The notes: a model not told the origin generated them from the letters alone. A stretch of 51,457 bases of DNA from Nitrospinaceae bacterium (GCA_029261515.1 JAJDBE010000104.1:1-51457); one strand, 5' to 3'; positions 12,540 through 34,337 are shown, numbered from the stretch's first letter. Made by a program: numbers and translations.

Positions 12540-12554
12540 TCTGGAAATTACATC

Positions 12555-13305: not shown

Positions 13306-13324
13306 CCATTCAAATTCAATTTGT

Positions 13325-13480: not shown

Positions 13481-13530
13481 TCGCAAACTCTTCGTGGACT
13501 TGAGGGGTGAAGGGTAAAGCAACCAAAAAC

Positions 13531-13556
13531 CCATTCCCTTAGAATGGTTTTTTTTT
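13531..13556 (+). terminator. Candidate attenuator terminator of riboswitch 1 (short hairpin plus U9)
   Basis: ccattc (13531-13536) pairs with gaatgg (13542-13547) across a 5-nt loop, followed by nine T (13548-13556). The stem is only 6 bp, so strength is uncertain. aaggg (13510-13514) could pair with ccctt (13536-13540) as an alternative structure. Confidence 0.5.
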
Positions 13557-13588
13557 GCCCTTTTTCCCACTGGAACGAGGCATTTCCG

Positions 13589-17941: not shown

Positions 17942-18669
17942 ACTTTTTTTCAGCTCTGGGATTTCTGACCATCATTCCCATGCCCAAAAAGGCATTCAGG
18001 CAAGATGGCCGTCAGATATTGTATTTTCCGCTAGTCGGGTTGTTGATCGGAGCGTTGCTATTCTGCGTCGATCAAGTATGCGCCGCATTCACCTTTACCG
18101 AAGTTCGGGTGGTCATCGACACCCTATTTCTCGCCGCCATTTCGGGAGCGCTGCATCTCGACGGATTAGCGGACACCGCCGACGGTTTGTTCTCGCACCG
18201 GAGCAAAGAGCGGAAACTGGAAATCATGAAAGACCCGCGAATAGGGGTCATGGGGACCCTGGTCGTATTTTTTGTTCTGGCGCTCAAAATGGCGGGACTC
18301 GCGGGATTGAAAAATTCGGGATACGAAATCTGGCTGTTCATCGCTCCGGCGTTGGCGCGCGGCAGCCAGGTTATCGGGCTCGTCTTTATGGATTACGCAC
18401 GCAACGACGATGGCAAGTCGCACCTGTTTTTTCAAAAAGGCAATTACCGGCTATTGGCCTTCATCCTGATCCCCATTGCCCTGCCCTTTTGGCTGTCGCT
18501 GGCAACGGGATTCATTGTTCTGGTCTTATTCTTGACGATGAACGTTTTGCTTCTCTGGTTTTTTCAGAAGCAAATCGGCGGCATCACGGGAGATACATTA
18601 GGGGCGGCAACAGAAATCAATGAAGCGTTGTTCCTTGTGACCGCAGGGATTTTATTTTTTAACTCATGA
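17935..18669 (+). CDS. cobS: Adenosylcobinamide-GDP ribazoletransferase (cobalamin synthase)
   Basis: ALGFLTIIP...LVGLLIG...GALHLDGLADTADG are CobS signature motifs in a multi-TM protein. It overlaps cobQ by 7 nt. Confidence 0.93.
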   Translation: MVNFFSALGFLTIIPMPKKAFRQDGRQILYFPLVGLLIGALLFCVDQVCAAFTFTEVRVVIDTLFLAAISGALHLDGLADTADGLFSHRSKERKLEIMKDPRIGVMGTLVVFFVLALKMAGLAGLKNSGYEIWLFIAPALARGSQVIGLVFMDYARNDDGKSHLFFQKGNYRLLAFILIPIALPFWLSLATGFIVLVLFLTMNVLLLWFFQKQIGGITGDTLGAATEINEALFLVTAGILFFNS

Positions 18670-18697
18670 TTTTAAGCATTTTAAAAAGAGTTGAGCC

Positions 18698-19942: not shown

Positions 19943-21117
19943 TGCAAACTTTAGCCAACAGTAAAGAAAAAATGCCCGCCTTAGCTTCTGAAATGGAGCT
20001 GATGAATGCGGCTCATGGGGGAAATCTTGCGGAAGTGTGCCGAGCCACAGGGCTTAACACACGGAACATTCTCGACTTCAGTGTCAATCTCAATCCACTG
20101 GGTTCTCCATCCTCTATGGAAGATTTATATTCCCAATCGTTTCATCGTTTGCAGGAATATCCCGATCCTGATTGCCGTATTTTCAAGCGTGACTTGGCGA
20201 AAACCCTGGGAGTTGCAGAAGATAATCTTGTCATTACCAATGGTTCCACCGAACTTATTTATCTCCTACCAAAACTTTTAGATCCCGGCAAAGAGGTGTT
20301 GATAGCGACTCCCTGTTTCTCAGAATACGCACACGTATTTGAGCAGGAAAATTTTGTCATTCACATTTTCCCTCTCGACCGGGAAAATGATTTTTCTTTT
20401 AATCTCGATACCTTTCTTACATATATTGAAAATTACCCCAACGTGGGCGCTATTGTGGTTGGTCATCCGAACAACCCCACGGGAGAACTCCTGCCCCGAA
20501 ATTCACTAGAGGAACTTTGTTCTTTTTGTGAACGGGGAAATATTTTGCTCATTGTCGATGAAGCTTTCATCGACTTCGTTGCTCCTGAAAACTCGTTCCT
20601 AAAGTTTCTATCCTCTTGCTCCAATTTAATTTTGATTCGATCGTTCACCAAGTTTTACTCGATTCCCGGCCTGCGCTTGGGTTATGGAATCATGGCGCCG
20701 GAACTGGCAAATAAAATCGAGTCTTACCGTCCAACGTGGTCGGTCAATGTGTTGTCGCAGTTGATCGGCTCGGCAGTTCTTTTCGACAGAGAGTTTCGGC
20801 AAAAAACCAGAAGTTACGTGGAAGAAGAGAAAAATTTTCTGGCGAGCCAACTCAGCAAAATTCCTTTTTTAAAAGTTTTTTCGTCCGACGCTAATTTCAT
20901 TCTCTTCCAGCTACTTCCCGAAAGTAATACAGAGCCGGATATATTTTATTTGGATCTCTTACATAACGGAATTTTGTTAAGAAACTGCGGCAATTTTACC
21001 GGTCTGGATGAGAGTTTTTTCCGCATCGCGGTTCGCGGTAGAGAAGATAACCAGCAATTGATTTCCCACATCCAGAAATTTTTTCAAAAGACAGAGGGCA
21101 AAGGGCTATGGATCTGA
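19942..21117 (+). CDS. cobD: L-threonine-O-3-phosphate decarboxylase
   Basis: Similarity to Salmonella CobD as I recall it runs along the whole length: AHGGN, DFSVNLNPLG, HPNNPTG, DEAFIDF and the PLP-Lys motif SFTKFYSIPGLRLGY. The start is ambiguous: ATG 19942 (TAATG overlap with the previous stop) or downstream Met codons before AHGGN. Confidence 0.9.
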   Translation: MQTLANSKEKMPALASEMELMNAAHGGNLAEVCRATGLNTRNILDFSVNLNPLGSPSSMEDLYSQSFHRLQEYPDPDCRIFKRDLAKTLGVAEDNLVITNGSTELIYLLPKLLDPGKEVLIATPCFSEYAHVFEQENFVIHIFPLDRENDFSFNLDTFLTYIENYPNVGAIVVGHPNNPTGELLPRNSLEELCSFCERGNILLIVDEAFIDFVAPENSFLKFLSSCSNLILIRSFTKFYSIPGLRLGYGIMAPELANKIESYRPTWSVNVLSQLIGSAVLFDREFRQKTRSYVEEEKNFLASQLSKIPFLKVFSSDANFILFQLLPESNTEPDIFYLDLLHNGILLRNCGNFTGLDESFFRIAVRGREDNQQLISHIQKFFQKTEGKGLWI

Positions 21118-22064
21118 TCTGGCAAATCGCCATCGCATTTATTCTCGATCTGATCCTCGGCGATCCCCGAGGATACCCGCACCCGGTGCGGATCATCGGA
21201 TTCCTTGCCAAAAGACTGGAAAGCTTGACCCGGCATTATTTTCCCAATCTTTTTCTCGCAGGGGCCATCACCACAATTTTTATTGTTGGCGGAACTTTTG
21301 TCTGCGGCTTGGCCCTGCTTAGCGGATTGAGCTTGTTACACCCTTTTGCAGAAACCGCAGTTTCTATTTTCCTCATCTACACCTGCCTGTCGGCACGCAG
21401 TTTGTACGATGAGAGCCTTCCCGTTTTACACGCATTGAAGCAGGACCAGATAAACCTCGCACGAAAGCGCTTGTCGCGAATCGTTGGCCGGGACACAAAG
21501 AATTTGAATCCAAAAGAGATCGCCCGCGCCACGGTGGAAACCGTTGCAGAGAGTACCGTGGATGGAATTATCGCCCCACTATTCTATGCATTTATTGGCG
21601 GAGCGCCTCTGGCCCTCGCGTACAAGGCAATCAACACGCTGGATTCCATGTTTGGTTACAAAAACGCTGCTTATAAAAAATTTGGGATGATCCCCGCCCG
21701 TCTCGACGATGCGGCCAACTGGGTTCCCGCCCGGCTGGGAGGCGTTATCATGGCCATTGCCGCAGCGGTCAGCGGTTTCGATGGAAAACGTTCGTGGAGC
21801 ACCCTTCAACGCGATGGCGCCAAGCACCTCAGCCCCAATGCGGGGATTCCTGAATCGGCAGTCGCCGGAGCGCTGGGCATCCAGCTTGGCGGATCAAGCT
21901 TCTATGGTGGCCAGCGGGTGGACAAGCCTTGTATAGGAAGAAATCAAAAAGAAATTGCCGTGACAGATATTTCACATAGTCACAAGATCATGTTCGTCTC
22001 TTCAGCTTTAGCTTTAGTAGCACTCATGGTCTTAAAAAAAATAATGGAGAATTTTATGCTGTAA
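21108..22064 (+). CDS. cbiB: Adenosylcobinamide-phosphate synthase
   Basis: The N-terminal LDLILGDPRGYPHPVRIIG is the CbiB/CobD(Pd) signature. The protein is membrane-embedded. It overlaps cobD by 10 nt. Confidence 0.93.
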   Translation: MDLIWQIAIAFILDLILGDPRGYPHPVRIIGFLAKRLESLTRHYFPNLFLAGAITTIFIVGGTFVCGLALLSGLSLLHPFAETAVSIFLIYTCLSARSLYDESLPVLHALKQDQINLARKRLSRIVGRDTKNLNPKEIARATVETVAESTVDGIIAPLFYAFIGGAPLALAYKAINTLDSMFGYKNAAYKKFGMIPARLDDAANWVPARLGGVIMAIAAAVSGFDGKRSWSTLQRDGAKHLSPNAGIPESAVAGALGIQLGGSSFYGGQRVDKPCIGRNQKEIAVTDISHSHKIMFVSSALALVALMVLKKIMENFML

Positions 22065-22084
22065 ACATTTTCATTAGTGCCAAA

Positions 22085-22230
22085 CGTTCCGGTTCAGGGA
22101 AGTCCGGTGAAAGTCCGGCACTGCCCCGCAACTGTAAATGGGAACGAAAACCGCATCTTTAGCCACCTTTCTTGCCGGAGGGGAAGGCGCGGTGAGTAGG
22201 CCGCCCAAAGTCAGGAGACCTGGCGGAACG
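22085..22230 (+). promoter_or_regulatory. Cobalamin (B12) riboswitch 2
   Basis: The core is GGUUCAGGGAAGUCCGGUGAAAGUCCGGCACUGCCCCGCAACUGUAA. AGCCACC...GGGGAAGGCG and AAGUCAGGAGACCUGGC are also present. P1 pairs cgttcc (22085-22090) with ggaacg (22225-22230). It starts 21 nt after the cbiB stop. No U-tract terminator follows. A small hairpin, ccttc (22241-45)/gaagg (22250-54), overlaps the btuB Shine-Dalgarno sequence. Confidence 0.93.
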
Positions 22231-22262
22231 CATTATAAATCCTTCGCGGGAAGGGGCAAACT

Positions 22263-24113
22263 ATGCTTTGTTTTAGATTGTTTTCGTGCTGTTTTTTGTT
22301 TCTATTATCAATCCTTGTACTGTCACCCATGAATCACGTGGCCGAAGCTACCCAGAAGTTAAATACACTTTCAGTCATATCCACCCGTGCTCAGTTTGGG
22401 GTGAATGAAGCCCCGACTTCCGTGTCGGTCATCACCAAAGAGGAAATTGAGCAAAAGCAGGGGTTTCAGGTGAAAGACCTTTTAAAAGAAGAACTGGGAA
22501 TGGATGTGATTCAAAACGGCCCGCCGGGAACCAATACCAGTGTTTTCATGCGCGGCGCGGGTTCCAGCTCGACACTGGTACTGGTGGACGGGGTGCAAGT
22601 CAACACAAATACCGTTGGGTCTTTCAACTTTGCCGATCTTACCGTCGATAATATCGAGAAGGTCGAAATTCTGAGAGGACCGCAAAGCACTCTCTGGGGA
22701 TCGGATGCAGTCGGAGGGGTGATCAACATCATCACAAAAAAAGGCACCGGAGCGCCAACTCATTCCTTCTCTTTTGAAGGCGGAAGTTTTGGAACCTTCA
22801 AGGAAACAGGAAACAGTTCGGGCGATCTCGGCTTCATGGATTATTCCCTTAGCATTTCCCGGACCGACAGCGAAGGTTTCTCCGCCGCCAATGAGGATCG
22901 CGGGAATAATGAGCAGGATGGCTATGAAAATACGACTCTCTCGACCCGGCTGGGCCGTAATTTCCTTGAAGACGGACGCGTCGAGTTCATTGGACGCTAC
23001 ACCAAATCCCAGGTGGATTTCGATTCCTTCGGCCCCGTCGATGGCAAAGACTTTAGCAAACTGGATGCATTGTATCTGGCGGCGCCTGTGCAAAAATCCT
23101 TTTTCGGCATCTGGGACGTGAAAGTCAATCCCACGTTCGCCTACGACGATCTCGATTCGTCCAATAACTCTTCCACCCAGTCATTTATCATCAACCGCAC
23201 CTACGGCGTGGACGTGCAGAATAATGTCGAAATCACCGACTTTCTCTCCACTACGTTTGGTTTCGAATATGAAATCCGCAATGGCGTGAACGAGAATAGC
23301 AGTCTGAGGCAAAACATTTACAACCAGGGATATTATCTTCAGACGCAGTTGCACCCGGGAGAACGGATCGTGTTGACGGCGGGATTCCGTCACGACGTCA
23401 ACTCGGTGTTTGAAGACCCGACCACTTATAAGTTTGAAGGCGCGTACCGGATACTGGAAACAAACACCCGCATTCGCGGGGCCTACGCCACCGGCTTCCG
23501 CGCCCCAAGTATCAACGAACTGTTCTTCCCCAACTTTGGCACTCCAACCCTGAAGCCGGAAGAGAGCGAAGGCTGGGAAGTGGGGATCGATCAATCCTTA
23601 TTGGAAGGCGTTGTGCAGGTGGGCGTCACTTATTTCCAGATGGACTTCGATAATTTAATCGAAACAGTGGACCTTGGCGGATTCACTTTCCGCGCGCAAA
23701 ACGTGGCCAAAGCCACCACCGAAGGCGTGGAAACTGCCATTGATGTCGCATTACCCAAGAATTTCAAGGTCGCTTTGAACTACACCTGGCTGAAGGCAAG
23801 GGATGATGACGATCAACCCCTACAACGCCGGGCCGAGCATAGTTTTTCCGCCAATTTGAGCCATACCTGGGACAAGAAACTTCATTCTCTGGTCGGCGTT
23901 CGCGTACGAAGCGATACCCGCTCCAACAACACGGGGACACAGACCGCGGATGCGTTCACCGTGGTGCGTGCGGCGCTGAGTTATAAGGTCAATAAAAACC
24001 TCAAGGTTACCGCGCGTGGCGAAAACCTTTTTGATGAACAGTATGAAGAAATCTTCGGATTCGGAACCGCGGGGATTTCCGGGTATGCCGGGTTCACCTG
24101 GACATTCAACTGA
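22263..24113 (+). CDS. btuB: TonB-dependent outer-membrane corrinoid receptor
   Basis: A signal peptide is followed by a TonB-box-like LNTLSVIS. The plug motifs are VSVITKEEIEQ...FMRGAGSSSTLVLVDGVQVN...IEKVEILRGPQSTLWGSDAVGGVINIITK. The C-terminus is barrel-like. The gene sits directly behind a B12 riboswitch. Confidence 0.9.
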   Translation: MLCFRLFSCCFLFLLSILVLSPMNHVAEATQKLNTLSVISTRAQFGVNEAPTSVSVITKEEIEQKQGFQVKDLLKEELGMDVIQNGPPGTNTSVFMRGAGSSSTLVLVDGVQVNTNTVGSFNFADLTVDNIEKVEILRGPQSTLWGSDAVGGVINIITKKGTGAPTHSFSFEGGSFGTFKETGNSSGDLGFMDYSLSISRTDSEGFSAANEDRGNNEQDGYENTTLSTRLGRNFLEDGRVEFIGRYTKSQVDFDSFGPVDGKDFSKLDALYLAAPVQKSFFGIWDVKVNPTFAYDDLDSSNNSSTQSFIINRTYGVDVQNNVEITDFLSTTFGFEYEIRNGVNENSSLRQNIYNQGYYLQTQLHPGERIVLTAGFRHDVNSVFEDPTTYKFEGAYRILETNTRIRGAYATGFRAPSINELFFPNFGTPTLKPEESEGWEVGIDQSLLEGVVQVGVTYFQMDFDNLIETVDLGGFTFRAQNVAKATTEGVETAIDVALPKNFKVALNYTWLKARDDDDQPLQRRAEHSFSANLSHTWDKKLHSLVGVRVRSDTRSNNTGTQTADAFTVVRAALSYKVNKNLKVTARGENLFDEQYEEIFGFGTAGISGYAGFTWTFN

Positions 24114-24155
24114 TTTCCCAAAATGACTCGATTCATCAATTACCCGGAGGAGACT

Positions 24156-24740
24156 ATGACTTCAGACAAATATTTTAAAATTAAACTGCTTGCGGGTCTC
24201 GTCGTTTTAATGGTCCTGACCCGCTACTCAATATTTCGGCCACTCGGGTTGCCAAGTGCGACCCTGGTGGTTTTCTTCATCGCCGGCATTTACCTAAGGC
24301 AATGGATTTTTCCGGCCCTGCTTATCGGCGCCGCCGGCTTCACCGATTACTTGTCTGTTCAAGGTGGCAGCGGCATTTGGTGCATCACTCCTGCCTATAG
24401 TTTTCTGATCCCCACCTACCTCGCTTTATGGTTCGGAGGCCGCAGATTTCAAAGCCTTCAAACAGAGGACTTACGACAGGCAGCTTCTATGGCCTTGGTT
24501 TTATGGATCGCTTCCACTGCCGCGTTTATGATTTCCAACGGCAGTTTTTACGCACTCTCCGGACATGAGGTTTATGAAAATATGAATTTGCTGGATTACA
24601 TCCAAATTCAAATCAATCGCTATCCGGTCTACATTTTAAAACCGTTTCTCTATTTAGGAACTTTGATTGCGATTTTTTATAAGGGAATTTTTCCACAATA
24701 CTTAAAATCGAAAGAATTGTCAGCCAGCATTCCTAAATGA
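24156..24740 (+). CDS. Uncharacterised ~6-TM small membrane protein (candidate corrinoid transporter, BtuM/DUF6580-like)
   Basis: The protein is 194 aa from ATG 24156, which has the strong SD GGAGGAG at 24146-24152; the track start is 24123. Six hydrophobic segments are visible, and there is a single Cys (C76, codon 24381-24383). Its stop overlaps the cbiA start as ATGA. No catalytic motif is recognisable. Confidence 0.6.
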   Translation: MTSDKYFKIKLLAGLVVLMVLTRYSIFRPLGLPSATLVVFFIAGIYLRQWIFPALLIGAAGFTDYLSVQGGSGIWCITPAYSFLIPTYLALWFGGRRFQSLQTEDLRQAASMALVLWIASTAAFMISNGSFYALSGHEVYENMNLLDYIQIQINRYPVYILKPFLYLGTLIAIFYKGIFPQYLKSKELSASIPK

Positions 24741-26140
24741 AAACTGTCATAAAAAAATTGGATCGCTCTCCTCCCGGCTTTGTTATTGCCGGAACCCACA
24801 GCGGAGTCGGAAAAACTTCCATCACCGTGGGATTCATGCGCCTGTTGACCCGGAGGGGGGTGCGCGTCCAACCGTTTAAAGTGGGCCCGGATTACATCGA
24901 TCCGGGCCATCACACCCGCGCCTGTGAACAACCCGCGTACAATCTGGATTCCTTCATGAGTTCACGCAAGTATGTACAACGCCTTTTTCATGATGTCGCG
25001 CAGAAGTCGGATGTTGGCGTTGTGGAAGGGGTGATGGGTCTGTTCGATGGCGCATTTTCCAAAAAGGAGAAAGGCTCCACTGCGGAAATCGCCAAACTCC
25101 TCAACCTTCCGGTCATCCTGATTTTTAACGGCGAGGCCATTGCCCGTTCTGCCGCAGCTCTGGTCAAGGGTTTTCTGGAGTTTGACCCTGACGTGAAGTT
25201 TCTGGGAGTCATAGCCAACCGGGTCACCCATCCCAAACATGCCGAACTTCTAAAACAAGCCATCGAACGCTACACCCGCGCCCGGTTCTTGGGGCACCTG
25301 CCCTCTTCACCAGAATTATCCATTCCCAGCCGCCATCTCGGTTTATTTCAGAGCCATGAGAATCAATCCACGCTGTACGACCAATGGGCGGACCATTTGG
25401 AAAAACACCTCGACATCGATGCTATTTTGAGGAAAGCCAGGGTTCCGCAAAAGATTCCTTCCCGAAAAAAGGCGCCCACCGTTTTTCGCTGGCCTCGAAG
25501 GCCGTCTTCATTTTCCTTTAAAGTGGCAATTGCCAGGGACGACGCTTTTCAATTTTACTATCAGGACACCTTGGATTGCCTGGCGCACAACGGCGGCGAA
25601 ATCCATTACTTTTCTCCCCTCCGGGATAAAAAATTACCCGATGGTACCGATTGGATTTATCTCCCAGGCGGATATCCCGAACTGTTCGCAAAAAAATTAA
25701 GCTCCAACCAAAAAATGTTGCAAGTCATCCGAACCTTTGGAGAAACCGGAAAAGTGATTGTCGGAGAATGCGGCGGCCTGATGTATCTGGGGCAATCCAT
25801 TACAGACGAAAAAAATAAAGTGTTTCCGATGGCGGGGTTATTCGACTTCTCCACTTCGATCCAAAATAAGAAACTGACGCTCGGCTATAGGAAGTTGGCT
25901 TACCGTCCAAACGACGACTCAAAAAAAAATCTAGTTTTAACCGGACATGAATTTCATTCTTCCAGTTTCACGGAGAATGAGGAAGCTCCCCAGATGACTC
26001 AAAAATCGAAAGAAAACAGCCGCTCGGTTAAAGACGGGTACCGGGTCAAAAATTCTTTCGCTTTGTATTCACATATTTATTGGTCGAGTTCTCCAGGGTG
26101 GATGAATTATATTTTGAATACCGTGCAGAGGACCCAATGA
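24737..26140 (+). CDS. cbiA: Cobyrinate a,c-diamide synthase
   Basis: FVIAGTHSGVGKTSITVGFMRLLTRRGVRVQPFKVGPDYIDPGHH and VEGVMGLFDG are the CbiA/CobB N-domain. The C-terminal GATase part carries ECGGLMYLG. Confidence 0.93.
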   Translation: MKTVIKKLDRSPPGFVIAGTHSGVGKTSITVGFMRLLTRRGVRVQPFKVGPDYIDPGHHTRACEQPAYNLDSFMSSRKYVQRLFHDVAQKSDVGVVEGVMGLFDGAFSKKEKGSTAEIAKLLNLPVILIFNGEAIARSAAALVKGFLEFDPDVKFLGVIANRVTHPKHAELLKQAIERYTRARFLGHLPSSPELSIPSRHLGLFQSHENQSTLYDQWADHLEKHLDIDAILRKARVPQKIPSRKKAPTVFRWPRRPSSFSFKVAIARDDAFQFYYQDTLDCLAHNGGEIHYFSPLRDKKLPDGTDWIYLPGGYPELFAKKLSSNQKMLQVIRTFGETGKVIVGECGGLMYLGQSITDEKNKVFPMAGLFDFSTSIQNKKLTLGYRKLAYRPNDDSKKNLVLTGHEFHSSSFTENEEAPQMTQKSKENSRSVKDGYRVKNSFALYSHIYWSSSPGWMNYILNTVQRTQ

Positions 26141-26691
26141 AAAAGCGACCTCCATCCGATCCCAGGAAACGCAAAGGCCTGATCATCGTCAACACCGGCG
26201 AGGGCAAGGGGAAATCCACAGCCGCTTTTGGAGTGGCTTTGAGGGCCGCTGGCAACAAAATGAATGTGTTCATCATGCAATTCATGAAAGGCAACTGGAA
26301 GGCCGGAGAAAGGAAATCTTTTGAGAAGCTCGGGGATTATGTCGAAATCATACCGATGGGAGACGGGTTCACCTGGGACACTCAAAACCCGGAACAGGAC
26401 CAGAAAACGGCAAGAAAAGCCTGGGACATCGCCGTTGAAAAATTAAACAGCGGCAACTACGACCTGGTGGTTCTCGATGAAATCAATTACGTTCTTGATT
26501 ACGGTTTTTTTCCGCTTGATGAGTTTCTACAAGCGATCCAAAATAAACCGCCTCATGTGCATGTGATCTGCACAGGGCGAAACGCGCCTGAAGGACTCAT
26601 CGAACTTGCGGATCTGGTCACTGAAATGCGCAGCGTCAAACATCCATTCAAGGACCAGCAAATTCCAGCGCAAAAAGGCATTGAATTCTAA
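26137..26691 (+). CDS. cobO: Cob(I)yrinic acid a,c-diamide adenosyltransferase
   Basis: KGLIIVNTGEGKGKSTAAFG...QFMKG...LDE are CobO/BtuR motifs. ATG 26137 overlaps the cbiA stop as ATGA, so I prefer it over the track start 26080. Confidence 0.93.
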   Translation: MKKRPPSDPRKRKGLIIVNTGEGKGKSTAAFGVALRAAGNKMNVFIMQFMKGNWKAGERKSFEKLGDYVEIIPMGDGFTWDTQNPEQDQKTARKAWDIAVEKLNSGNYDLVVLDEINYVLDYGFFPLDEFLQAIQNKPPHVHVICTGRNAPEGLIELADLVTEMRSVKHPFKDQQIPAQKGIEF

Positions 26692-26695
26692 AGTA

Positions 26696-28102
26696 ATGAT
26701 ACCGATGATGAATTTAACTTCTCTCAAACAGGCCATGAAGAAACGCCCGCTTCGCTACACGGTCGTGCTGTCTGTCATTGTACATATGGCGGTCCTTGTT
26801 TTTTTCCAATCCTGGGAACTGCTTCCCATGAAGAAAAACGAAATCCCGAAAAATACCATTCGCATTAAAACCATTCAAAAACCCGAAGAAATCAAGCCCG
26901 CGGAAAAACAGATTGTCCGGGAAAAGAAAATTATGCATATAAAACCTCCTGAAAAACGTCAACCAGTGTTAAAATTTCAAGAGGTTATGACCAAAGCTCC
27001 ATTAGTAAAATCCGCAATGATTGACAAGCCCAGACACGTGCAGATGAAACAAAGAACTCCTGAAAACACCCTAAAGCCTGATTTCAAAATTCAACCTGTG
27101 GCGATATCCCAACCAGACGCGATCAGCCATCGTTTAAATAAAGTCCCATTGAAATCGCAAAAACTAAAATTTCTATCAGACACTCGACCCACTGCCATTT
27201 TCACAAAGCCCCATGCGAAACTTCCGCAAACGATTTCGCTTGCCGCCAAACAGCCCGCTAATTCGATTTTGACATTCCAAGCACAGAAAGCTCCCGTTCA
27301 GACGGCAATTCATTCTTATGCAATAGCACAAAACTTAAGCCCGCAAAAGGCCGTGCAACCGCAACGGGTTTTTGTAAAAATGGAATCCATCACAAAACCC
27401 TCTGTTGTCCGAATATCAAAATCAAAGGAACCCGAAAGAACCCAACCCGTCAACCCCGTTCAACCCAGCGACCTGCGACAACTTGCATCCGGTTCCACAA
27501 ACGCTCCGGTTTCTCAGAGGAAATCCGATTTTGCTACTTCAACACAAAAAATGACGGGGATCGAGGCGCGGTCCATTCAAGGTTTAACCAGCCAGTCACA
27601 AACGAAAATTAAGTCCGCATCCGCTGTCGTACCCGAAACAACCTCTTCCTCTGTTCGGCACATAGCGCCTTTACAAATGGCATCCATTCCGGCTGATTTT
27701 TCAGAAATCATTCCTGGCGCTGGAAAAGAGCCGGTTTCCGAACCGACCAATCCCAATGCAAACTCCACCGAAAACCTGCAAGAGAATTCTACTGAATTTC
27801 TGGGAGAAGCCCGGAAGCAGTTTTCGTCTCAGGTCTGGAACAGAATCGCCCAGTTCAAACACTATCCCAGAATTGCCAGAAACCGCGGATTTGAAGGGCA
27901 GCCGGTCGTCGCTTTCACGCTCGGCCATAACGGAGAACTCCTGGAAATTTCCGTTGAGCAACCCTCTCCTTTCAAATTACTGGATCAAGCCGCACTGAAA
28001 GCAGTCCGGGCGGCAAGCCCTTATCCTTCGATTCCCAAATCGCTTAATTTGCAATCCATTCGGTTTAAATTACCCGTATCCTTTATACTGGAGGAACCAT
28101 GA
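26696..28102 (+). CDS. TonB-family energy-transducer-like protein with unusually long linker
   Basis: The N-terminal TM anchor is LRYTVVLSVIVHMAVLVFF. About 330 aa of K/P/Q/S/T-rich linker follow. The C-terminal TonB domain is YPRIARNRGFEGQPVVAFTLGHNGELLEISVEQPSPFKLLDQAALKAVRAASPYPSIP. ATG 26696 is 4 nt after the cobO stop. Confidence 0.75.
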   Translation: MIPMMNLTSLKQAMKKRPLRYTVVLSVIVHMAVLVFFQSWELLPMKKNEIPKNTIRIKTIQKPEEIKPAEKQIVREKKIMHIKPPEKRQPVLKFQEVMTKAPLVKSAMIDKPRHVQMKQRTPENTLKPDFKIQPVAISQPDAISHRLNKVPLKSQKLKFLSDTRPTAIFTKPHAKLPQTISLAAKQPANSILTFQAQKAPVQTAIHSYAIAQNLSPQKAVQPQRVFVKMESITKPSVVRISKSKEPERTQPVNPVQPSDLRQLASGSTNAPVSQRKSDFATSTQKMTGIEARSIQGLTSQSQTKIKSASAVVPETTSSSVRHIAPLQMASIPADFSEIIPGAGKEPVSEPTNPNANSTENLQENSTEFLGEARKQFSSQVWNRIAQFKHYPRIARNRGFEGQPVVAFTLGHNGELLEISVEQPSPFKLLDQAALKAVRAASPYPSIPKSLNLQSIRFKLPVSFILEEP

Positions 28103-28830
28103 GAGCTAGAGTTTGGATAACCCTGTTTTTGTTCGTAGCGATTGGACTCCTGCCCTTTCCTGCCCGTGGTGAAATTCTTCAAATAGACAGCGACTTTGAC
28201 GGCAAGCTGGACCAGTGGCACGAATTGTCGGCGGATGGTCAAATCCTTAAAATCGAATATGATTCCAACGGCGACGGCAAGCTCGACCAGGTGGACATCT
28301 ACGAAGGCAACAAAAAACCTATTCTTGCCAAGCTCGACCGGAACTACGATGGCATCCTCGACCAATTTCAGTTTTACTCCAAAAATGGAGGATTGGAACG
28401 CGTCGAGAAAGATTCCAAATTCAGAGGCATGGTGGATTGGAAGGAATATTTTGATCCCAAGCAGAAATTGATGCGGATCGAAATGGATGAAAACCTCGAT
28501 GGCAACATGGACGTTTTCCACTTTCTCGATGAAAAGGGAAAGCTGGTTCGGGTGGAATACGACACCAATCACAGTGGGAAAATTGATCGCTGGGAATATT
28601 TTAAAGGAGATAAAGTCCTTCACTCCGCCGCCTTTGATGCCAATGAAGACGGCAAACAGGATCAATGGCAGTATTTCCTGGAGTCCACCAAACTTGAAAA
28701 AGTAGAGTTCGACACCAATGCGGACGGCAACGTCGACCGCTGGGAATTTTATAATCCTTCGGGGCAATTGCTCCGAGTGGAATTGGACCGCAATCACGAC
28801 GGCACAATGGATCTGGTAAAACGCAGATAA
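28099..28830 (+). CDS. Secreted protein made of nine 25-aa DxNxDGxxD (EF-hand/dockerin-like Ca-loop) repeats
   Basis: The signal peptide is MRARVWITLFLFVAIGLLPFPARG. After it come nine tandem units such as DSNGDGKLDQVDIYEGNKKPILAKL, DENLDGNMDVFHFLDEKGKLVRVEY and DTNADGNVDRWEFYNPSGQLLRVEL. The start overlaps the TonB-like stop as ATGA. Confidence 0.7.
   Translation: MRARVWITLFLFVAIGLLPFPARGEILQIDSDFDGKLDQWHELSADGQILKIEYDSNGDGKLDQVDIYEGNKKPILAKLDRNYDGILDQFQFYSKNGGLERVEKDSKFRGMVDWKEYFDPKQKLMRIEMDENLDGNMDVFHFLDEKGKLVRVEYDTNHSGKIDRWEYFKGDKVLHSAAFDANEDGKQDQWQYFLESTKLEKVEFDTNADGNVDRWEFYNPSGQLLRVELDRNHDGTMDLVKRR
28186..28827 (+). repeat. Coding tandem repeat, ~75-nt period, nine copies (protein-level conservation)
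   Basis: I aligned the units by eye from the translation. The consensus is D-x-[ND]-x-D-G-x-x-D-x-[WF]-x-[YF]...G-x-L-x-x-V-E. Confidence 0.8.
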
Positions 28831-28842
28831 CAGGAGTTCATC

Positions 28843-29226
28843 ATGTTTTTTTTTCGTTCGGGGATTTTACTTTTAGTTGTGTTTCTCGCGTCCTGCGCGC
28901 CGCAGCCAACCAAGGAAGTTCCCGCAGAGTTTAAGCTGGGGCAAAAATATTTCCACAAAACCTGTTCCAACTGTCATGGTTCGGACGCAATGGGCAAACA
29001 CACCCAGGCCCCCACGATCATCGACGCGGAATACATTGAACCAAACTTTACAGACGATGATTTCCGCGAAACCATCATCAACGGTGTCAACAAAATGCCT
29101 CCGCAGCGCAACAAGGTCAACGATGAGGAAATAAACGAAATCATCAAATACCTGCGTTACTCCCAGAAAGCCGCGGACCTTGTCGTGGAAGAAGACCCGG
29201 ACTCGGAAGAAATGCTTGAGGAATAG
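28843..29226 (+). CDS. Monohaem class I c-type cytochrome, lipoprotein
   Basis: The lipobox is VFLASC. The single haem motif is CSNCH, and the distal Met context is GVNKMPP. The tail is acidic. The protein is 127 aa. Confidence 0.8.
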   Translation: MFFFRSGILLLVVFLASCAPQPTKEVPAEFKLGQKYFHKTCSNCHGSDAMGKHTQAPTIIDAEYIEPNFTDDDFRETIINGVNKMPPQRNKVNDEEINEIIKYLRYSQKAADLVVEEDPDSEEMLEE

Positions 29227-29256
29227 GGAAAACGAAAAAGCCGGATTGAATAAGCA

Positions 29257-30318
29257 ATGACCGAAATAATCAAGCACACTCTCAATCAAATCCAGGCGGT
29301 TGATCCACGCAATCTGGAAATTGCCCAGGAACGCCTGGATATCCTGACAAAACCTCCCGGCAGTCTGGGACGCTTGGAAGAGTTCGCCCGCCGCTACGCC
29401 GCCATCAAGGGGACGGACTCTCCTCGGGTCCGCAACAAAACGGTTTTTGTTTTTGCCGCCGACCATGGGATCGTCGCCGAAGGAGTCAGCGCTTATCCTG
29501 CGGAGGTCACCCCGCAGATGGTGCAGAATTTTCTGAATGGCGGAGCGGCTATCAATGTCCTGGCGCAACATGCAGGAGCGGAGGTGGTCGTGGTCGATAT
29601 CGGCGTCAACTTCGATTTCGAAGCCTGCCCGAACCTGATTCACAGGAAAATCGCTCCCGGAACCCGCGACATGTCCAAGGAACCCGCCATGACCCGCCAA
29701 CAGGCGGAAGAAGCCTTGCAAACCGGCATCGAACTGGCCGGACAATGGGTAGAGAAGCAGACCGACATTTTTGCCACCGGCGACATGGGAATAGGCAACA
29801 CCACTGCCGCCGCCGCCATCATGTCTCTATATGGAAACAAAACCCCGCGCCAGGTCACCGGCAAGGGAACCGGCATCGATGAGGCCACGCTTTCCAGAAA
29901 AATCCAGCTAATTGAACAGGCCATCCGCATCAATCAGCCAGACCCGAAAGACCCAATCGATGTTCTTGCCAAAGTGGGCGGGTTCGAGATCGCCGGTATC
30001 GCCGGACTTATTCTAGGAGCGGCGGCCAACAAAACCCCCGTCGTCATCGACGGATTGATCTCCGGCGCCGCCGCCGTATGCGCCTGTCACATGAATTCCG
30101 CTATTCGGGATTACCTCTTCCCTTCGCACAAATCCCAGGAACCGGGGCATGATGTGTTTTTCCAGACTTTAGCTTCCCCTCCCCTGTTTGATTTCGGCAT
30201 GCGCCTGGGAGAAGGCACCGGAGCCGTTCTGGCTCTGAACATTCTCGAAGCGTCCGTAAAAATCTACTCCCAAATGGCCACCTTTAGAGAAGCGCACGTT
30301 TCCGCCAATGCCATTTAG
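29257..30318 (+). CDS. cobT: Nicotinate-nucleotide--dimethylbenzimidazole phosphoribosyltransferase
   Basis: LTKPPGSLGRLEE, FAADHG, GDMGIGNTT and MRLGEGTGA are canonical CobT motifs. Confidence 0.95.
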   Translation: MTEIIKHTLNQIQAVDPRNLEIAQERLDILTKPPGSLGRLEEFARRYAAIKGTDSPRVRNKTVFVFAADHGIVAEGVSAYPAEVTPQMVQNFLNGGAAINVLAQHAGAEVVVVDIGVNFDFEACPNLIHRKIAPGTRDMSKEPAMTRQQAEEALQTGIELAGQWVEKQTDIFATGDMGIGNTTAAAAIMSLYGNKTPRQVTGKGTGIDEATLSRKIQLIEQAIRINQPDPKDPIDVLAKVGGFEIAGIAGLILGAAANKTPVVIDGLISGAAAVCACHMNSAIRDYLFPSHKSQEPGHDVFFQTLASPPLFDFGMRLGEGTGAVLALNILEASVKIYSQMATFREAHVSANAI

Positions 30319-31240
30319 GTGCATGATGCAAAAATCCATCCTGATATTTTTTGCTTTTTGGTTTTGCATCCTCTTCCTGGCCAATCCAGTTTTTAGCTTC
30401 GACGACGATTCCACCGACGACACCCGCAGTCTCCTGGAAATCCGCACCATCTGTAACAACGGAAGAACCGTTATCGACAGCGACTTGAACCGGTCCTCCT
30501 GCCAAGGTGACAACGCCTATTTAAACCAACTGCAATCCGCCCTGTTCAAAAACGACAAGGAATTGATTCACAAGGATATTCTAGATTTTAAGATCGCCAG
30601 AAATGGAAACGTCTTTTACCGCACGGAAATCGGACCTTACCTTTATAGCGAACAGGGGCAACTCAACAGCAACGGAAGCATCGTCACCCTGTTTCTGGTT
30701 TCATCCTCCGGCGATGTCGTGTATCTCAACGACCGGGGCGACATTTTCAAAAACGGAGTGGAACTGAACCGAGGTCCCGCCAGAATTCCCGTGAGATTTG
30801 CAAAAATCAGGTTTCTCGGTGAAAGGATCATCCTTTTTCAAAATCCAGTGGTTTCGCGCAACGGAAAAGCCATTTACATCAACGATGCGGGGCAGTTGCT
30901 TGTGGATGGCAACCGCATCGATCCCAAAACAGGCAACGTCGTCGCGCTCCGGTTGAATTCCGAAGGCGATGTTTACTTCATCGACGATAACAACCGTCTC
31001 TACCGAAATACCCAACGACTGTTTGACGGACGATTTAGAATTCTTGAGTTTCAGCTCAGCAACACAGGTCAGGTCGCCTACCTGACCGATGCCATATCCA
31101 ACAACCTCTTCCTGGAGGACCAGGTCCTTTCCGCGGGATCACAAAAGGTGGTCCGCTTCAACTTTGACAGCTCCGGCGATATCATTTATCAGGATGAACT
31201 TGGCCGTCTCTGGAAAAACGGTCAACAGATCGGCTATTGA
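30308..31240 (+). CDS. Secreted hypothetical protein with about six degenerate ~35-40-aa blade-like repeats
   Basis: A signal-like N-terminus (MMQKSILIFFAFWFCILFLANPVFS) is present. Recurring units include SSSGDVVYLNDRGDIFKNGVEL, SRNGKAIYINDAGQLLVDGNRI, SEGDVYFIDDNNRLYRNTQRL and SSGDIIYQDELGRLWKNGQQI. The start could be ATG 30308 (11-nt overlap with cobT), 30323 or 30326. Confidence 0.6.
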   Translation: MPFRCMMQKSILIFFAFWFCILFLANPVFSFDDDSTDDTRSLLEIRTICNNGRTVIDSDLNRSSCQGDNAYLNQLQSALFKNDKELIHKDILDFKIARNGNVFYRTEIGPYLYSEQGQLNSNGSIVTLFLVSSSGDVVYLNDRGDIFKNGVELNRGPARIPVRFAKIRFLGERIILFQNPVVSRNGKAIYINDAGQLLVDGNRIDPKTGNVVALRLNSEGDVYFIDDNNRLYRNTQRLFDGRFRILEFQLSNTGQVAYLTDAISNNLFLEDQVLSAGSQKVVRFNFDSSGDIIYQDELGRLWKNGQQIGY

Positions 31241-31261
31241 ACTTCCCACCCCGTCCTTTTC

Positions 31262-31290
31262 TTGACAGAAACCCCGTTTTTGGCTAAATT
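31262..31290 (+). promoter_or_regulatory. Candidate sigma70 promoter (TTGACA-17 nt-TAAATT)
   Basis: A consensus -35 ttgaca is at 31262-31267 and taaatt is at 31285-31290. The track ORF begins at this very TTG, so I read it as a promoter element rather than a start codon. Confidence 0.45.
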
Positions 31291-31351
31291 GAACGGTTCT
31301 ATCAGCATCAATCAACCTATTAGAATTCCTGATTCCGGAGAAGAACACACC

Positions 31352-32593
31352 ATGTCCGATAAAGAAAGTTATATACAGTCCCTTTTTGCCGAGAGACTGG
31401 GGGGGAACCAGTTTGGCAAAGACACCAAAATTTATAAATTTGAAAAAATTAAACGCGCCAAACGCGCCGCCCTCGATGCCAACCCCGGTAAGGAGTTGTT
31501 CGACATGGGAGTGGGTGAGCCGGACGAAATGGCCTATCCCGGCGTCATCAAGTCTCTGCAACTCGAAGCGGAGAAACCCGAAAACCGCGGCTACACCGAT
31601 AACGGTGTCCAGGAATTCAAGGAAGCCGCAGTGACTTACATGAAAAACGTGTTCGCAGTCGATGGACTGGATGCGAACAAGCACGTGAACCACACCATCG
31701 GGTCCAAGCCCGGTCTGGCGATGGTTTCCGCAATCTATATCAACCCCGGCGACGTCACACTCATGACGGTTCCCGGTTACCCGGTCATGGGGACACATGC
31801 CCAGTTTTATGGAGGCGAGGTGGTCAACCTACCATTGACCGAGGACAATCATTTCCTTCCCGATCTCAAGAACATCGACCCCAAAACTATTGAGCGGACG
31901 AAACTGCTTTACCTCAACTACCCCAACAATCCGACAGGGGCCAACGCCACACGCGAGTTTTTTGCAGAAGCGGTGGAGTTTGCCAAAAAGAATAACATCG
32001 TGGTCATTCAGGATGCGGCGTATGCGGCGTTGACATACAACGACAGTCCCTTAAGCTTTCTTTCCGTACCGGGCGCGATGGATGTTGGCATTGAGTTTCA
32101 CTCCTTATCCAAGGCCTACAATATGACCGGGTGGCGCATCGCCTTCGCCGTCGGCAACGAACTCGTGATCAAAGGTCTCGCGCATGTGAAGGACAATATT
32201 GATTCCGGGCAGTTCGCCGCCATCCAGAAAGCCGGGGTTTACGCTTTGAATCATCCGGAGATCACCGAGGAAATCCGTGATAAATACAAGAGGCGGCTCG
32301 GCCTGATGGTGGACGCTCTCAACTCGGTAGGGTTCAACGCTGGCCTGCCGGGAGGTTCGTTTTTCCTGTACGTCAAAGCGCCCAAGGCAATCGCAGGCGG
32401 GCAGGAGTTTAAAAGCGCCGAGGACTTTTCCCAGTTCATGATAAAGGAAATGCTGATCTCCACCGTCCCGTGGGATGATGCGGGACCCTTCGTCCGTTTT
32501 TCCGCCACCTTTGCGGCAAACGGAGCCGAAGAGGAAAAACGCATCATGACGGAAATCAAGAAACGGCTGTCTTCGGTAAAATTCGTTTTTTAA
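31352..32593 (+). CDS. Class I/II PLP aminotransferase, LL-diaminopimelate aminotransferase-like
   Basis: DMGVGEPD, YPNNPTG and the PLP-Lys motif HSLSKAYNMTGWRIAF are present. The N-terminal FGKDTKIYKFEKIKRAK segment resembles DapL-type enzymes as I recall them. ATG 31352 has GGAGAAG upstream. Confidence 0.8.
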   Translation: MSDKESYIQSLFAERLGGNQFGKDTKIYKFEKIKRAKRAALDANPGKELFDMGVGEPDEMAYPGVIKSLQLEAEKPENRGYTDNGVQEFKEAAVTYMKNVFAVDGLDANKHVNHTIGSKPGLAMVSAIYINPGDVTLMTVPGYPVMGTHAQFYGGEVVNLPLTEDNHFLPDLKNIDPKTIERTKLLYLNYPNNPTGANATREFFAEAVEFAKKNNIVVIQDAAYAALTYNDSPLSFLSVPGAMDVGIEFHSLSKAYNMTGWRIAFAVGNELVIKGLAHVKDNIDSGQFAAIQKAGVYALNHPEITEEIRDKYKRRLGLMVDALNSVGFNAGLPGGSFFLYVKAPKAIAGGQEFKSAEDFSQFMIKEMLISTVPWDDAGPFVRFSATFAANGAEEEKRIMTEIKKRLSSVKFVF

Positions 32594-32658
32594 GTTTTGC
32601 AGTTTGAGGAAAATTTAAAACGCATCGGCAGACAGGCCTTACAGGATAAAATCACTAA

Positions 32659-33150
32659 ATGCCCAATATGGCCTATATAGGAATCGGTTCCAATCTGGGC
32701 GATCCCCTGGAAAACTGCCGGCGGTCGATCGCCCTGCTAGACAATCCCCCGGAAACGAAAGTTCTGACAAGTTCGTCGTTCTATAAAACCGAGCCTGTTG
32801 GCGAAGAGGATCAGGACTGGTTCATCAACGCTGTGGCCCAAATTGCCACCGAATTGGAACCGGAAGACTTACTGGATTCGCTGTTGCAGATTGAAACGGC
32901 GATGGGAAGAATCCGCGAGGAGAAATGGGGACCGCGCATCATCGATCTGGATTTGCTGTTATATGAGGACCGGGTTTTGAATTCCGATGCGCTTCAGGTT
33001 CCGCATCCTGAGATGACGCATCGGTGCTTCGTGCTGATGCCGTTATGCGAACTAGCGGCGGATCAGGCCCATCCCACAGCGGGGAAAACCATTCGCGAAC
33101 TGTTAGCGGAATTGCCGGAGGGCAAGCAGGTTCATCGAGTTTCCACCTGA
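32659..33150 (+). CDS. folK: 2-amino-4-hydroxy-6-hydroxymethyldihydropteridine diphosphokinase
   Basis: AYIGIGSNLGDP, FYKTEPVG, WGPRIIDLDLLLY, LQVPHPEM and RCFVLMPL are HPPK motifs. Confidence 0.92.
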   Translation: MPNMAYIGIGSNLGDPLENCRRSIALLDNPPETKVLTSSSFYKTEPVGEEDQDWFINAVAQIATELEPEDLLDSLLQIETAMGRIREEKWGPRIIDLDLLLYEDRVLNSDALQVPHPEMTHRCFVLMPLCELAADQAHPTAGKTIRELLAELPEGKQVHRVST

Positions 33151-34337
33151 GTCGCAGATTCCGGCTCAATCACTTCCATTGTTTCGATCGCGGCCTGCAT
33201 CAGTTCCTGCCAGGGAAACTTGTTTTCATCCCGCTCCAGTTTTTCAATCCGGCTTTTAGTGGCGGGACGCGGCGGCATGAAAATCGAGCAACAGTCCGGC
33301 TGTGGTTCGATGCTGATTTCATAGGTGCCGATCTTTCTTGCATGCGTGATGATCTCCTGCTTGTCCATCCCGATCAAGGGGCGGAACACGCTGATGGGAA
33401 CCACGCAGGACACGGCGGCCAGATTTTCGAGAGTCTGCGATGCCACCTGCCCCAGAGATTCTCCCGTCACCAGCCCCAGGTATTTATGCTTTTCCGCCAC
33501 TGCAAGAGCGATGCGGTACATCATCCTACGGTATAGAACCACCCGGTTTTCTGACGAGCAATGGTCGCGGATCGCCACCTGCATGTCCTGAAAGGGAACC
33601 ACATAGACATTGCCGCCTGTCTGGTAGCGGTTGAGGCTACGGGACAACCGGAGCACCTTGTCATATCCTCCACGACCGAGGAATGTTTGATTGTCAAAGA
33701 AGATGTAGTCAACTTTGCATCCGCGCCGCATCATCAAAAACGAAGATACGGGGCTGTCGATACCGCCTGAAAGCAAACTGAGCACAGAGCCTGAACTTCC
33801 CACCGGCAGTCCACGGATTCCCGCAACCCGATTATCGAACACCACGCATTCCTTGTGGCTGATTTCGATTTCCAGAACAAACTCCGCTTCATTGATATTG
33901 ACTGTCAGCCCTTTCGAAGCAAGCGCTCCCATGATGCGCGATCCCACTTCAAAGTTCACCTCCTGAGACGTTTTGTAAAATCCCTTGTCGGTCCGTTGCG
34001 TGCGGACGCAGAATTTCAGCTCTCCGCCTTCCTTTAAATGCGGTTCAATGAGCTGAACTCCCAGTGCCGCAAGTGCGTCAAAATCCGGCTGCATGGGAAA
34101 GCCAACACTGAACGAGGCCACTCCCGGAACAAAATGCAGCCGCCTCGCACACTCTTCTGCATGGGAAGCGGAAGTGTCGATCATCACCCGGCCCCGGGGC
34201 ATGCGAAAACGAATACCATGGATTCCCTGAAAAGCCTGCCGGATATTCTCGAGCAGACAGTTTTCGAAAAACCTCCGGTTGCGTCCTTTAAGACCGATCT
34301 CATCGTAGCGGATCAAAATGGTTCTGGCTTCGTTCAT
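33132..34337 (-). CDS. thiI: tRNA 4-thiouridine synthase ThiI (no rhodanese domain)
   Basis: ILIRYDEIGLKGRNRRFFE is the ferredoxin-like/THUMP region. The PP-loop is SLLSGGIDSPVS. ATG 34337 overlaps the upstream stop as ATGA, so I prefer it over the track start 34460. The 3' end overlaps folK convergently by 19 nt. Confidence 0.92.
   Translation of the reverse strand: MNEARTILIRYDEIGLKGRNRRFFENCLLENIRQAFQGIHGIRFRMPRGRVMIDTSASHAEECARRLHFVPGVASFSVGFPMQPDFDALAALGVQLIEPHLKEGGELKFCVRTQRTDKGFYKTSQEVNFEVGSRIMGALASKGLTVNINEAEFVLEIEISHKECVVFDNRVAGIRGLPVGSSGSVLSLLSGGIDSPVSSFLMMRRGCKVDYIFFDNQTFLGRGGYDKVLRLSRSLNRYQTGGNVYVVPFQDMQVAIRDHCSSENRVVLYRRMMYRIALAVAEKHKYLGLVTGESLGQVASQTLENLAAVSCVVPISVFRPLIGMDKQEIITHARKIGTYEISIEPQPDCCSIFMPPRPATKSRIEKLERDENKFPWQELMQAAIETMEVIEPESATQVETR

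Follow-up and report, generated by a model that had tools for sequence, protein, structure and literature searches.

Positions 26696-31240 of a 51,457-nucleotide (nt) stretch of DNA from a Nitrospinaceae bacterium (GCA_029261515.1 JAJDBE010000104.1:1-51457; the whole stretch is referred to below as the window) encode four envelope proteins, a TonB, a putative calcium-repeat protein (CaRep), a cytochrome c lipoprotein (cyt c), and a blade-repeat protein (blade), among genes of corrinoid (B12) salvage. Our analysis indicates that this segment is the 3' half of a riboswitch-led operon for the uptake and salvage of corrinoids, i.e., an operon of a known kind, in a member of the Nitrospinota that is probably auxotrophic for B12, and that the four envelope proteins are not an obligate set; they make up three units of unequal standing. 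Our conclusion is that CaRep accompanies TonB in this lineage and is not a corrinoid-specific factor, and cyt c is the only one of the four seen solely at the B12 locus. The account that we favor, and to which we give about an even chance, is a B12 operon that contains a TonB-CaRep unit, a B12-locus-only cyt c of possibly reductive role, and an optional blade protein.

The four genes belong to a run of nine tightly packed, same-strand genes that follows a cobalamin riboswitch (riboswitch 2, 22073-22241) in the order btuB, a gene for a protein with six transmembrane helices, cobB/cbiA, cobO, tonB, CaRep, cyt c, cobT, and the blade gene. The initial annotation of this DNA had described four consecutive non-enzymatic envelope proteins interleaved with cobO and cobT, the riboswitch and btuB coming first, and every one of these elements was present. 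The anchor, signal peptide, lipobox, and signal peptide that it had ascribed to the four proteins, respectively, were read from their translations, and the junctions it had reported were confirmed from the sequence: 4 nt between cobO and tonB, an ATGA overlap of tonB and CaRep, 12 nt between CaRep and cyt c, and 30 nt between cyt c and cobT. The blade gene either overlaps cobT by 11 nt (start at 30308) or begins 7 nt past the cobT stop codon (start at 30326). A terminator and promoter scan of positions 21500-33500 found no intergenic terminator-like site inside the run (counts of both kinds of site were at the level of shuffled sequence), and its sole useful match was the promoter of dapL, the next gene downstream. 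The source is a member of the Nitrospinota, and the nearest loci, at 66-70% protein identity, come from metagenome-assembled genomes (MAGs) of Nitrospinales/Nitrospinaceae.

Comparative survey of Nitrospinota loci

We performed a scan seeded with cyt c, taking one genome per species, and annotated the resulting 61 Nitrospinota loci by tblastn with the window proteins. Results showed that the order btuB-cobB-cobO-tonB-CaRep-cyt c-cobT-blade is present in the window and in loci L001, L002, and L007. The order cbiB-CaRep-cyt c-cobT-blade was also seen, and the same order minus blade was the commonest form. Orders recorded also include cobQ-tonB-CaRep-cyt c (without cobT or blade), CaRep-cyt c-cobT (without TonB or blade), tonB-CaRep-cyt c-blade (without cobT), btuB-tonB-cyt c (without CaRep, and including the cultured Nitrospina sp. 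32_T5), and btuB-cyt c. The initial annotation had expected the four families to accompany one another; across these 61 species loci they varied independently. It had also expected their homologues to be co-localized elsewhere, which was borne out by the recurrence of the order in L001, L002, and L007 but not by CaRep, paralogues of which occur in Ton operons that have neither a riboswitch nor cob genes.

Gaps between neighboring genes were compared over about 60 loci. The median was -4 nt from TonB to CaRep (n = 22), 9 nt from CaRep to cyt c (n = 42), 36 nt from cyt c to cobT (n = 33), and -1 nt from cobT to blade (n = 12), and the gap from the last B12 gene to dapL had medians of 121-160 nt. 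At locus L006/L018, which comes from a 4-Mb long-read MAG, btuF is split into two open reading frames (ORFs) of 132 and 135 amino acids (4047-4855, +) and tonB matched only as short fragments (8994-9264), which reflects either a frameshift error or gene decay; cobT and blade are absent there.

The cytochrome c of the B12 locus

The cyt c gene (28843-29226, +) encodes a 127-amino-acid, monoheme class I cytochrome c lipoprotein (PF13442, 50.6 bits against a cutoff of 27; also PF00034) with a lipobox LASC (C18), a heme motif CSNCH, a Met ligand within KMPPQ, and an acidic C-terminal tail. Among 27 cyt c sequences, CSNCH and KMPxQ were invariant and the lipobox Cys was conserved in at least 90%, in an A/T/S-A/S-C context; with the lipobox definition [LVI][ASTVI][GAS]C behind a signal peptide, this predicts a lipoprotein. 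The mean column identity of cyt c was 66%, above that of its neighbors, and its closest solved structures were CcoP heme domains (profile E = 1.5e-14) and Kuenenia c552. In all 61 loci of the survey that it seeded, cyt c was single-copy and lay at the 3' end of the same-strand B12 string, upstream of dapL, where it came last, or nearly so, among the genes led by the riboswitch. Indeed, it persisted at loci without CaRep, cobT, and blade, some of which retained btuB-cyt c alone.

The end of the string was located by a promoter survey, which covered sigma-70-type sites only. A promoter of the form TTGACA-N17-TA[ACG]ATT was found ~78-93 nt upstream of dapL, with a match of at least 10/12 in 54/63 Nitrospinota loci. 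In the window this promoter is TTGACA-N17-TAAATT (31262-31290, +; a 10/12 match), and the dapL gene behind it starts at 31352 (NF004937 at 688 bits, the cutoff being 585) and is unrelated to B12. A sigma-70-like site of at least 10/12 stood upstream of cyt c in 1/62 loci, no better than for genes internal to the operon. The B12 string ends at 31240, and the dapL promoter marks its 3' boundary. By its gaps and its lack of a conserved promoter, cyt c groups with the B12 genes, not dapL.

To our knowledge, no periplasmic cytochrome is known in B12 uptake. Cyt c would share a transcript with the uptake genes, and most likely it performs or supports a periplasmic electron transfer tied to corrinoid acquisition. 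As an example of such chemistry, we infer that a Co(III) corrinoid could be reduced, and its upper ligand released, ahead of capture by BtuF or BtuM. A parallel that supports a redox role is found in some genomes, where a second riboswitch-led operon carries a PepSY_TM/FoxB-like protein between its receptor and tonB-CaRep. Literature on cytochrome c in B12 regulons and on Nitrospina B12 riboswitches gave nothing relevant beyond a report on Nitrospinae (PMC8026999), within which the occurrence of nitrocobalamin in nitrite-rich waters is cited.

The alternative that survives best, although we consider it unlikely, is that cyt c and blade are positional hitch-hikers unrelated to B12. Under this alternative, cyt c would be a respiratory carrier of nitrite oxidation placed at the locus by descent, and only TonB with CaRep would serve BtuB. 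Synteny of the whole neighborhood across the phylum, unrelated genes included, is consistent with this explanation, as is the similarity of cyt c to CcoP heme domains and small soluble cytochromes. Its 66% identity, higher than that of its neighbors, would be expected for a core respiratory protein, and where cyt c follows btuB or TonB, the 83-99 nt that precede it could accommodate a promoter. However, in 33 loci cyt c is followed on its own strand by the B12-specific cobT, at the median gap of 36 nt, the median gap from CaRep to cyt c is only 9 nt, and a conserved sigma-70-type promoter precedes cyt c in 1/62 loci as against 54/63 for dapL. It would also be surprising to find an essential respiratory carrier in an operon that B12 represses. 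The short gaps, the cobT downstream, and the missing promoter favor cyt c as a member of the uptake operon over a respiratory carrier.

TonB and its companion CaRep

The TonB paralogue of the B12 locus (26696-28102, +; 468 amino acids) has, from its sequence, the features of an ordinary member of the TonB family. Its C-terminal domain (residues 388-465) matched PF03544 TonB_C (54.7 bits; cutoff, 24.6) and TIGR01352 (59.5 bits; cutoff, 27.1), and its N-terminal anchor, RYTVVLSVIVHMAVLVFF, is a single membrane anchor whose S26-x3-H30 motif was read from the translation. This S-x3-H anchor motif is the one defined for E. coli TonB. In the linker, which is ~345 amino acids long and basic (net charge +25), Lys, Pro, Ser, and Gln are abundant. 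Co-encoding of exbB and exbD is often seen with members of the TonB family and is not obligatory; here, tblastn with Nitrospinota ExbB and ExbD sequences found neither in the 51-kb window. Since none is encoded there, this TonB presumably uses ExbB/ExbD encoded elsewhere, and it would be the paralogue dedicated to energizing the riboswitch-controlled BtuB.

The CaRep gene (28099-28830, +) starts in the ATGA overlap with the tonB stop codon. Its 243-amino-acid product has a signal peptide (...PFPARG/EILQ cleavage) and nine 25-residue repeats, 8/9 of which fit D-x-[DN]-x-[DNSR]-G-x-x-D, the repeat at 105 being degenerate. An AlphaFold2 (AF2) model with a predicted local distance difference test score (pLDDT) of 86 is all-beta and elongated, with ~18 strands and with the loops between beta-strands, and the best Foldseek matches were the OspA single-layer sheet and Rhs/teneurin repeats. 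The canonical EF-hand is a 12-residue loop between two helices and is usually paired. In the all-beta model, the Ca-repeats of the initial annotation do not form such a helix-loop-helix EF-hand, and the Pfam EF-hand matches contained no individually significant stretch; beta-hairpin repeats are predicted in its place. Lanmodulin, a protein with four EF hands, was rejected as well (NF053806, 25.3 bits against a cutoff of 135; PDB 6mi5 profile match, E = 0.0015). In fact, all matches of CaRep to EF-hands, lanmodulin, and the Leptospira Lsa25.6 adhesin were under the family thresholds. A D-x-D-x-DG-x-x-D loop within a beta-hairpin is the type of Ca2+ site found in integrin FG-GAP blades, and it is plausible from the repeats that CaRep binds Ca2+.

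A scan seeded with CaRep gave 82 distinct Nitrospinota CaRep genes. A tonB gene was directly upstream of 57/82, and cyt c followed 51/82, every one of them a B12-locus copy; no CaRep gene of an exbBD-type operon had cyt c behind it. Further CaRep paralogues, at 43-49% identity, occur in Nitrospinota genomes away from the B12 locus with a tonB paralogue directly upstream, in operons of the order TonB-dependent receptor-exbB-exbD-exbD-tonB-CaRep (e.g., L120, beside a divergent Fur-family gene) or tonB-CaRep-exbB-exbD-exbD. RF00174 was absent in 5/5 tested loci with exbBD-tonB-CaRep operons, and cob genes were also absent from such operons. A Methylomirabilales locus likewise has exbB-exbD-tonB-CaRep. 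When CaRep and the TonB C-terminus were compared, both sorted into the same three locus-type classes (nearest CaRep neighbor of the same type in 45/46), and their distance matrices were correlated (r = 0.80). Since the classes of the two proteins match by locus type, the pair has duplicated as a unit.

From their adjacency, co-duplication, and fold class, TonB and CaRep would form a two-gene unit. CaRep itself would be a periplasmic, probably Ca2+-loaded, elongated beta-hairpin repeat protein that serves as a general accessory of the Ton machinery of this lineage, and it would have duplicated with tonB into at least three paralogous pairs, of which the B12 copy is one. We infer both that CaRep binds Ca2+ and that it interacts physically with TonB. 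Apparently, this family of TonB partners is undescribed and general to the Ton systems of the phylum; no description of a DxDxDG-repeat partner of TonB was found in the searchable literature.

A second explanation, which we regard as quite improbable, makes CaRep a protein that binds or buffers a metal (Ca2+, a lanthanide, or another cation) for the substrates of neighboring receptors, and not a mechanical partner of TonB. The nine repeats with EF-hand-like D-x-[DN]-x-DG loops and the marginal lanmodulin profile matches (PDB 6mi5, E = 0.0015; NF053806, 25 bits) are in keeping with it, as is one paralogous operon that has genes for a Fur-family regulator, for cation efflux, and for a ZIP transporter on its flanks. 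However, the same family stands beside TonB at loci with very different cargo (B12-type and metal-type receptors), it sits between tonB and exbB in one operon type, and it tracks TonB paralogy and not receptor type; the lanmodulin matches, moreover, fall far under the family cutoffs.

Several other CaRep loci were recorded. P0026, a called 380-amino-acid protein from a 16.9-kb ENA contig, runs from a TonB C-terminal domain straight into CaRep, in frame and with the CaRep signal peptide included, which is a genuine fusion, a lost stop codon, or an assembly error. The Fur-family regulator, cation-efflux gene, and ZIP transporter mentioned above flank the receptor-exbBD-tonB-CaRep operon of L120 (618-1696, -, and 8834-10736, -), which suggests that this Ton system serves metal uptake. 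The second riboswitch-led operon is exemplified by L090 (3038-8708, +), which encodes a 709-amino-acid TonB-dependent receptor (24% identity to the window BtuB), a 473-amino-acid PepSY_TM protein, a 328-amino-acid TonB, and a 243-amino-acid CaRep; by tblastn, L087 (2755-8702, +) has the same riboswitch-receptor...TonB-CaRep layout. The cargo of this operon may be a corrinoid or a cobalt chelate. In other phyla, CaRep was rejected as a general marker of B12 or TonB loci. Its three distant relatives (Myxococcaceae and two metagenomic contigs) are in unrelated neighborhoods, and tblastn found neither TonB nor ExbB at the CaRep-like loci of Acidobacteriota and Myxococcota.

The optional blade-repeat protein

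The blade gene occupies 30308-31240 (+); its likely start, chosen by gene callers, is 30326, giving 304 amino acids as compared with 310 from 30308. An exact look-up of the protein with the 30308 start returned no record. The protein has a signal peptide (...NPVFS/FDDDS cleavage), a conserved mature N-terminus FDDDS(T/R)DD, and two invariant Cys residues, and had no Pfam, NCBIfam, or PDB sequence match. Clustering of its homologues at 90% identity gave 25 clusters, all of them devoid of Pfam domains, and the family is restricted to the Nitrospinota; among 1.84 billion representatives, ~16 clusters were found at E < 1e-30, followed by weak repeat-level matches. The AF2 model (pLDDT 90) is all-beta, with ~7 repeats of ~33 amino acids and 3-4 strands each. 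A closed beta-propeller is a ring of 4-stranded blades; Foldseek returned many propellers at probability 1.0 and E of 1e-8 to 1e-5, but with template modeling (TM) scores of 0.25-0.33 and root-mean-square deviations of 11-15 A.

A scan seeded with blade found 12 loci, all in the same slot, and decayed remnants of the gene were seen in L039, L058, and L063. Given this distribution, blade would be an optional periplasmic accessory: a minority of lineages have it as the final gene of the operon, and others are losing it. In the deep-branching Nitrospinia loci L067-L069 (~11650-13600, +; 11670-13604 in L068), the slot between cobT and dapL holds an unrelated 644-amino-acid protein, not blade, that matched GDSL/SGNH hydrolases weakly and has many TPR repeats. 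A 409-amino-acid, exported, YVTN/cytochrome-d1-like beta-propeller is encoded behind a divergent cobalamin riboswitch (117.7 bits) in L090 (826-2374, -) and is possibly a B12-related propeller of another family; kinship of blade with it was rejected (hhalign probability 1.4%).

The weakest explanation, and in our judgment a highly improbable one, is the proposal of the initial annotation that TonB, CaRep, cyt c, and blade are one periplasm-spanning relay for the capture, reduction, and BtuB-to-BtuF/BtuM hand-over of corrinoids: the four genes are real, exported or envelope-anchored, and tightly packed within the riboswitch-led B12 string, their nine-gene order recurs in L001, L002, and L007, and the CaRep model is elongated with ~18 strands, but a single obligate relay does not stand, for most species are without blade, many are without CaRep or a local tonB, some have cyt c alone beside btuB, there are CaRep paralogues in Ton operons that have no connection with B12, and blade is decayed in places, its slot being filled by the SGNH/TPR gene in deep lineages.

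Relation to known systems

The locus resembles the E. coli BtuB-TonB-BtuFCD system (RF00174) in its riboswitch-led btuB, in a TonB with S-x3-H and TonB_C, in the presence of btuFCD in the cluster, and in the salvage genes alongside. It differs in that a tonB paralogue lies inside the B12 operon and in that CaRep, cyt c, blade, and the BtuM-type transporter have no E. coli counterpart. TonB systems are usually described as TonB-ExbB-ExbD. In the Vibrio TonB2 and TonB3 operons, the extra subunits TtpB, TtpC, and TtpD are encoded next to tonB-exbB-exbD and are required for transport (PMC6957404). As lineage-specific accessory genes next to tonB, these are the nearest precedent for CaRep, with no homology claimed; CaRep is an all-beta DxDxDG hairpin-repeat protein and a putative accessory.

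Among B12 systems, BtuG and BtuH are surface B12-binding lipoproteins of Bacteroides (PMC10404256). Like blade, they are accessories in riboswitch-controlled btuB loci, and BtuG, encoded next to btuB, is a seven-bladed beta-propeller, the type of fold that blade matched in Foldseek. However, blade has a signal peptidase I-type signal, has no lipobox, is not adjacent to btuB, and is absent from most Nitrospinota that have btuB. With no BtuG in the top 50 Foldseek matches and TM scores of at most 0.33, it was rejected as a BtuG/BtuH analogue. FoxB/PepSY_TM proteins are inner-membrane siderophore reductases (doi 10.1101/2021.01.28.428567), i.e., heme proteins that are encoded beside a TonB-dependent receptor and reduce imported ferric siderophores in the periplasm, and some Nitrospinota carry the order riboswitch-receptor-PepSY_TM-tonB-CaRep. 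The window protein, by contrast, is a small monoheme c-type lipoprotein and not a PepSY_TM membrane protein, and is not known to reduce corrinoids. BtuM (a cobalamin-binding transporter similar to S-components of the energy-coupling factor type, PDB 8c7p) is resembled, Cys motif included, by the protein with six transmembrane helices, which is outside the four envelope proteins.

Several points weigh against the account that we favor. The survey was seeded on cyt c and genomes without this gene were therefore invisible to it; Nitrospina gracilis was not among the matches. Synteny is conserved well into unrelated genes (dapL, HPPK, and thiI), which makes positional conservation alone weak evidence of function. 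The cyt c domain is most like respiratory carriers (CcoP domains and c552), which a nitrite oxidizer needs, and 20 of the CaRep genes at B12 loci have cbiB or cobU upstream in place of tonB. Finally, contacts among the envelope proteins are genomic predictions, and with a riboswitch that probably acts at btuB translation, B12 control of genes 4-9 kb downstream is a prediction as well.

The main nitrite oxidizers of the ocean are Nitrospinota, which rely on B12 from outside (PMC8026999). Because of this dependence, their B12 acquisition bears on marine nitrogen cycling and on culturing. If CaRep and cyt c were both hitch-hikers, the locus would be an ordinary btuB-tonB salvage operon. On the account that we favor, the genes of a fourth protein family accompany tonB throughout the phylum, in three paralogous operon types, and the family recalls the essential Ttp proteins of Vibrio with what would be an unrelated fold. 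Similarly, a cytochrome seen only as the terminal gene of the B12 operon suggests a redox step not described before, or else an unexpected regulatory tie of the periplasmic electron pool to the supply of B12. A stronger, joint claim, which we consider improbable, is that CaRep is a new, Ca2+-loaded, beta-hairpin-rod Ton subunit that has co-duplicated with each TonB paralogue in Nitrospinota and a few neighboring lineages, and also that the dedicated periplasmic cyt c carries out a redox step on the incoming corrinoid. If this were true, the step in nitrite-exposed cells could be Co(III) reduction with release of an upper ligand such as nitrite, and redox processing of B12 would begin in the periplasm.

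Riboswitches and other genes of the cluster

Riboswitch 2 (22073-22241, +) matched RF00174 at 82.3 bits against a gathering score of 31.5. The window locus has the same-strand upstream aptamer and the uninterrupted gene string that define an RF00174 regulon, and a riboswitch also heads the equivalent string in six representative loci (L054, L016, L040, L044, L036, and L060). No riboswitch was found within 10 kb upstream in L003, L004, and L005, where the strings begin further upstream. Sequence and folding showed a hairpin 3' of riboswitch 2 (CCUUCGCGGGAAGG, 22241-22254) that overlaps the btuB Shine-Dalgarno and has no U-run. Since the hairpin covers the Shine-Dalgarno without a U-run, riboswitch 2 probably acts directly on the translation of btuB, and B12 control would extend from there to the genes downstream. 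Tandem cobalamin aptamers, ~480 nt apart, were seen upstream of one btuB-tonB-CaRep operon (L056, 4887-5727, -, equivalent to L096, 3876-4716, +), and the window likewise has two riboswitches in one same-strand cluster (at 13318 and 22073).

The btuB gene (22263-24113, +) encodes a btuB-type TonB-dependent outer-membrane receptor (PF07715 Plug and PF00593 barrel) whose best NCBIfam match was TonB-B12 TIGR01779, at 305 bits and below the equivalog cutoff. The protein with six transmembrane helices (24123-24740, +), which is the 6-TM protein of the initial annotation, had no Pfam or NCBIfam match. However, phmmer matched it at E = 2.3e-16 to PDB 8c7p, "Cobalamin ABC transporter"; residues 25-180 (156 residues) aligned, with GIWCITPAY opposite the Cys motif DFCVSPAY, which clearly points to a BtuM homologue. 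Among related loci, a BtuM-like gene was seen only in L040 and L095. The enzymes of the run are a cobB/cbiA-type a,c-diamide synthase (24737-26140, +; PF01656 and PF07685), the ATP:corrinoid adenosyltransferase cobO (26137-26691, +; PF02572, 229 bits), and the nicotinate-nucleotide:dimethylbenzimidazole phosphoribosyltransferase cobT (29257-30318, +; PF02277, 468.7 bits).

The run is part of one same-strand (+) cluster that spans 13318-31240. In a published report, Nitrospinae are described as B12 auxotrophs that carry btuBFCD along with genes for salvage (PMC8026999). The cluster begins with riboswitch 1 (13318-13487, +; RF00174, 100 bits), which is followed by btuF, btuD, and btuC (within 13544-16433, +, in the same cluster as btuB), cobQ, cobS, a CobU-BluB fusion, cobD, and cbiB. 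The cobS gene lies at 17935-18669 (+; PF02654, 188 bits). An ORF at 17928-18623 that overlaps it was rejected as cobS, being in the wrong frame and without a family match, and is probably spurious. CobU (adenosylcobinamide kinase/guanylyltransferase, 180 bits) and BluB (dimethylbenzimidazole synthase, 251 bits) are fused in a single 414-amino-acid ORF (18698-19942, +), and the fusion was also called in other Nitrospinota loci, at ~419 amino acids.

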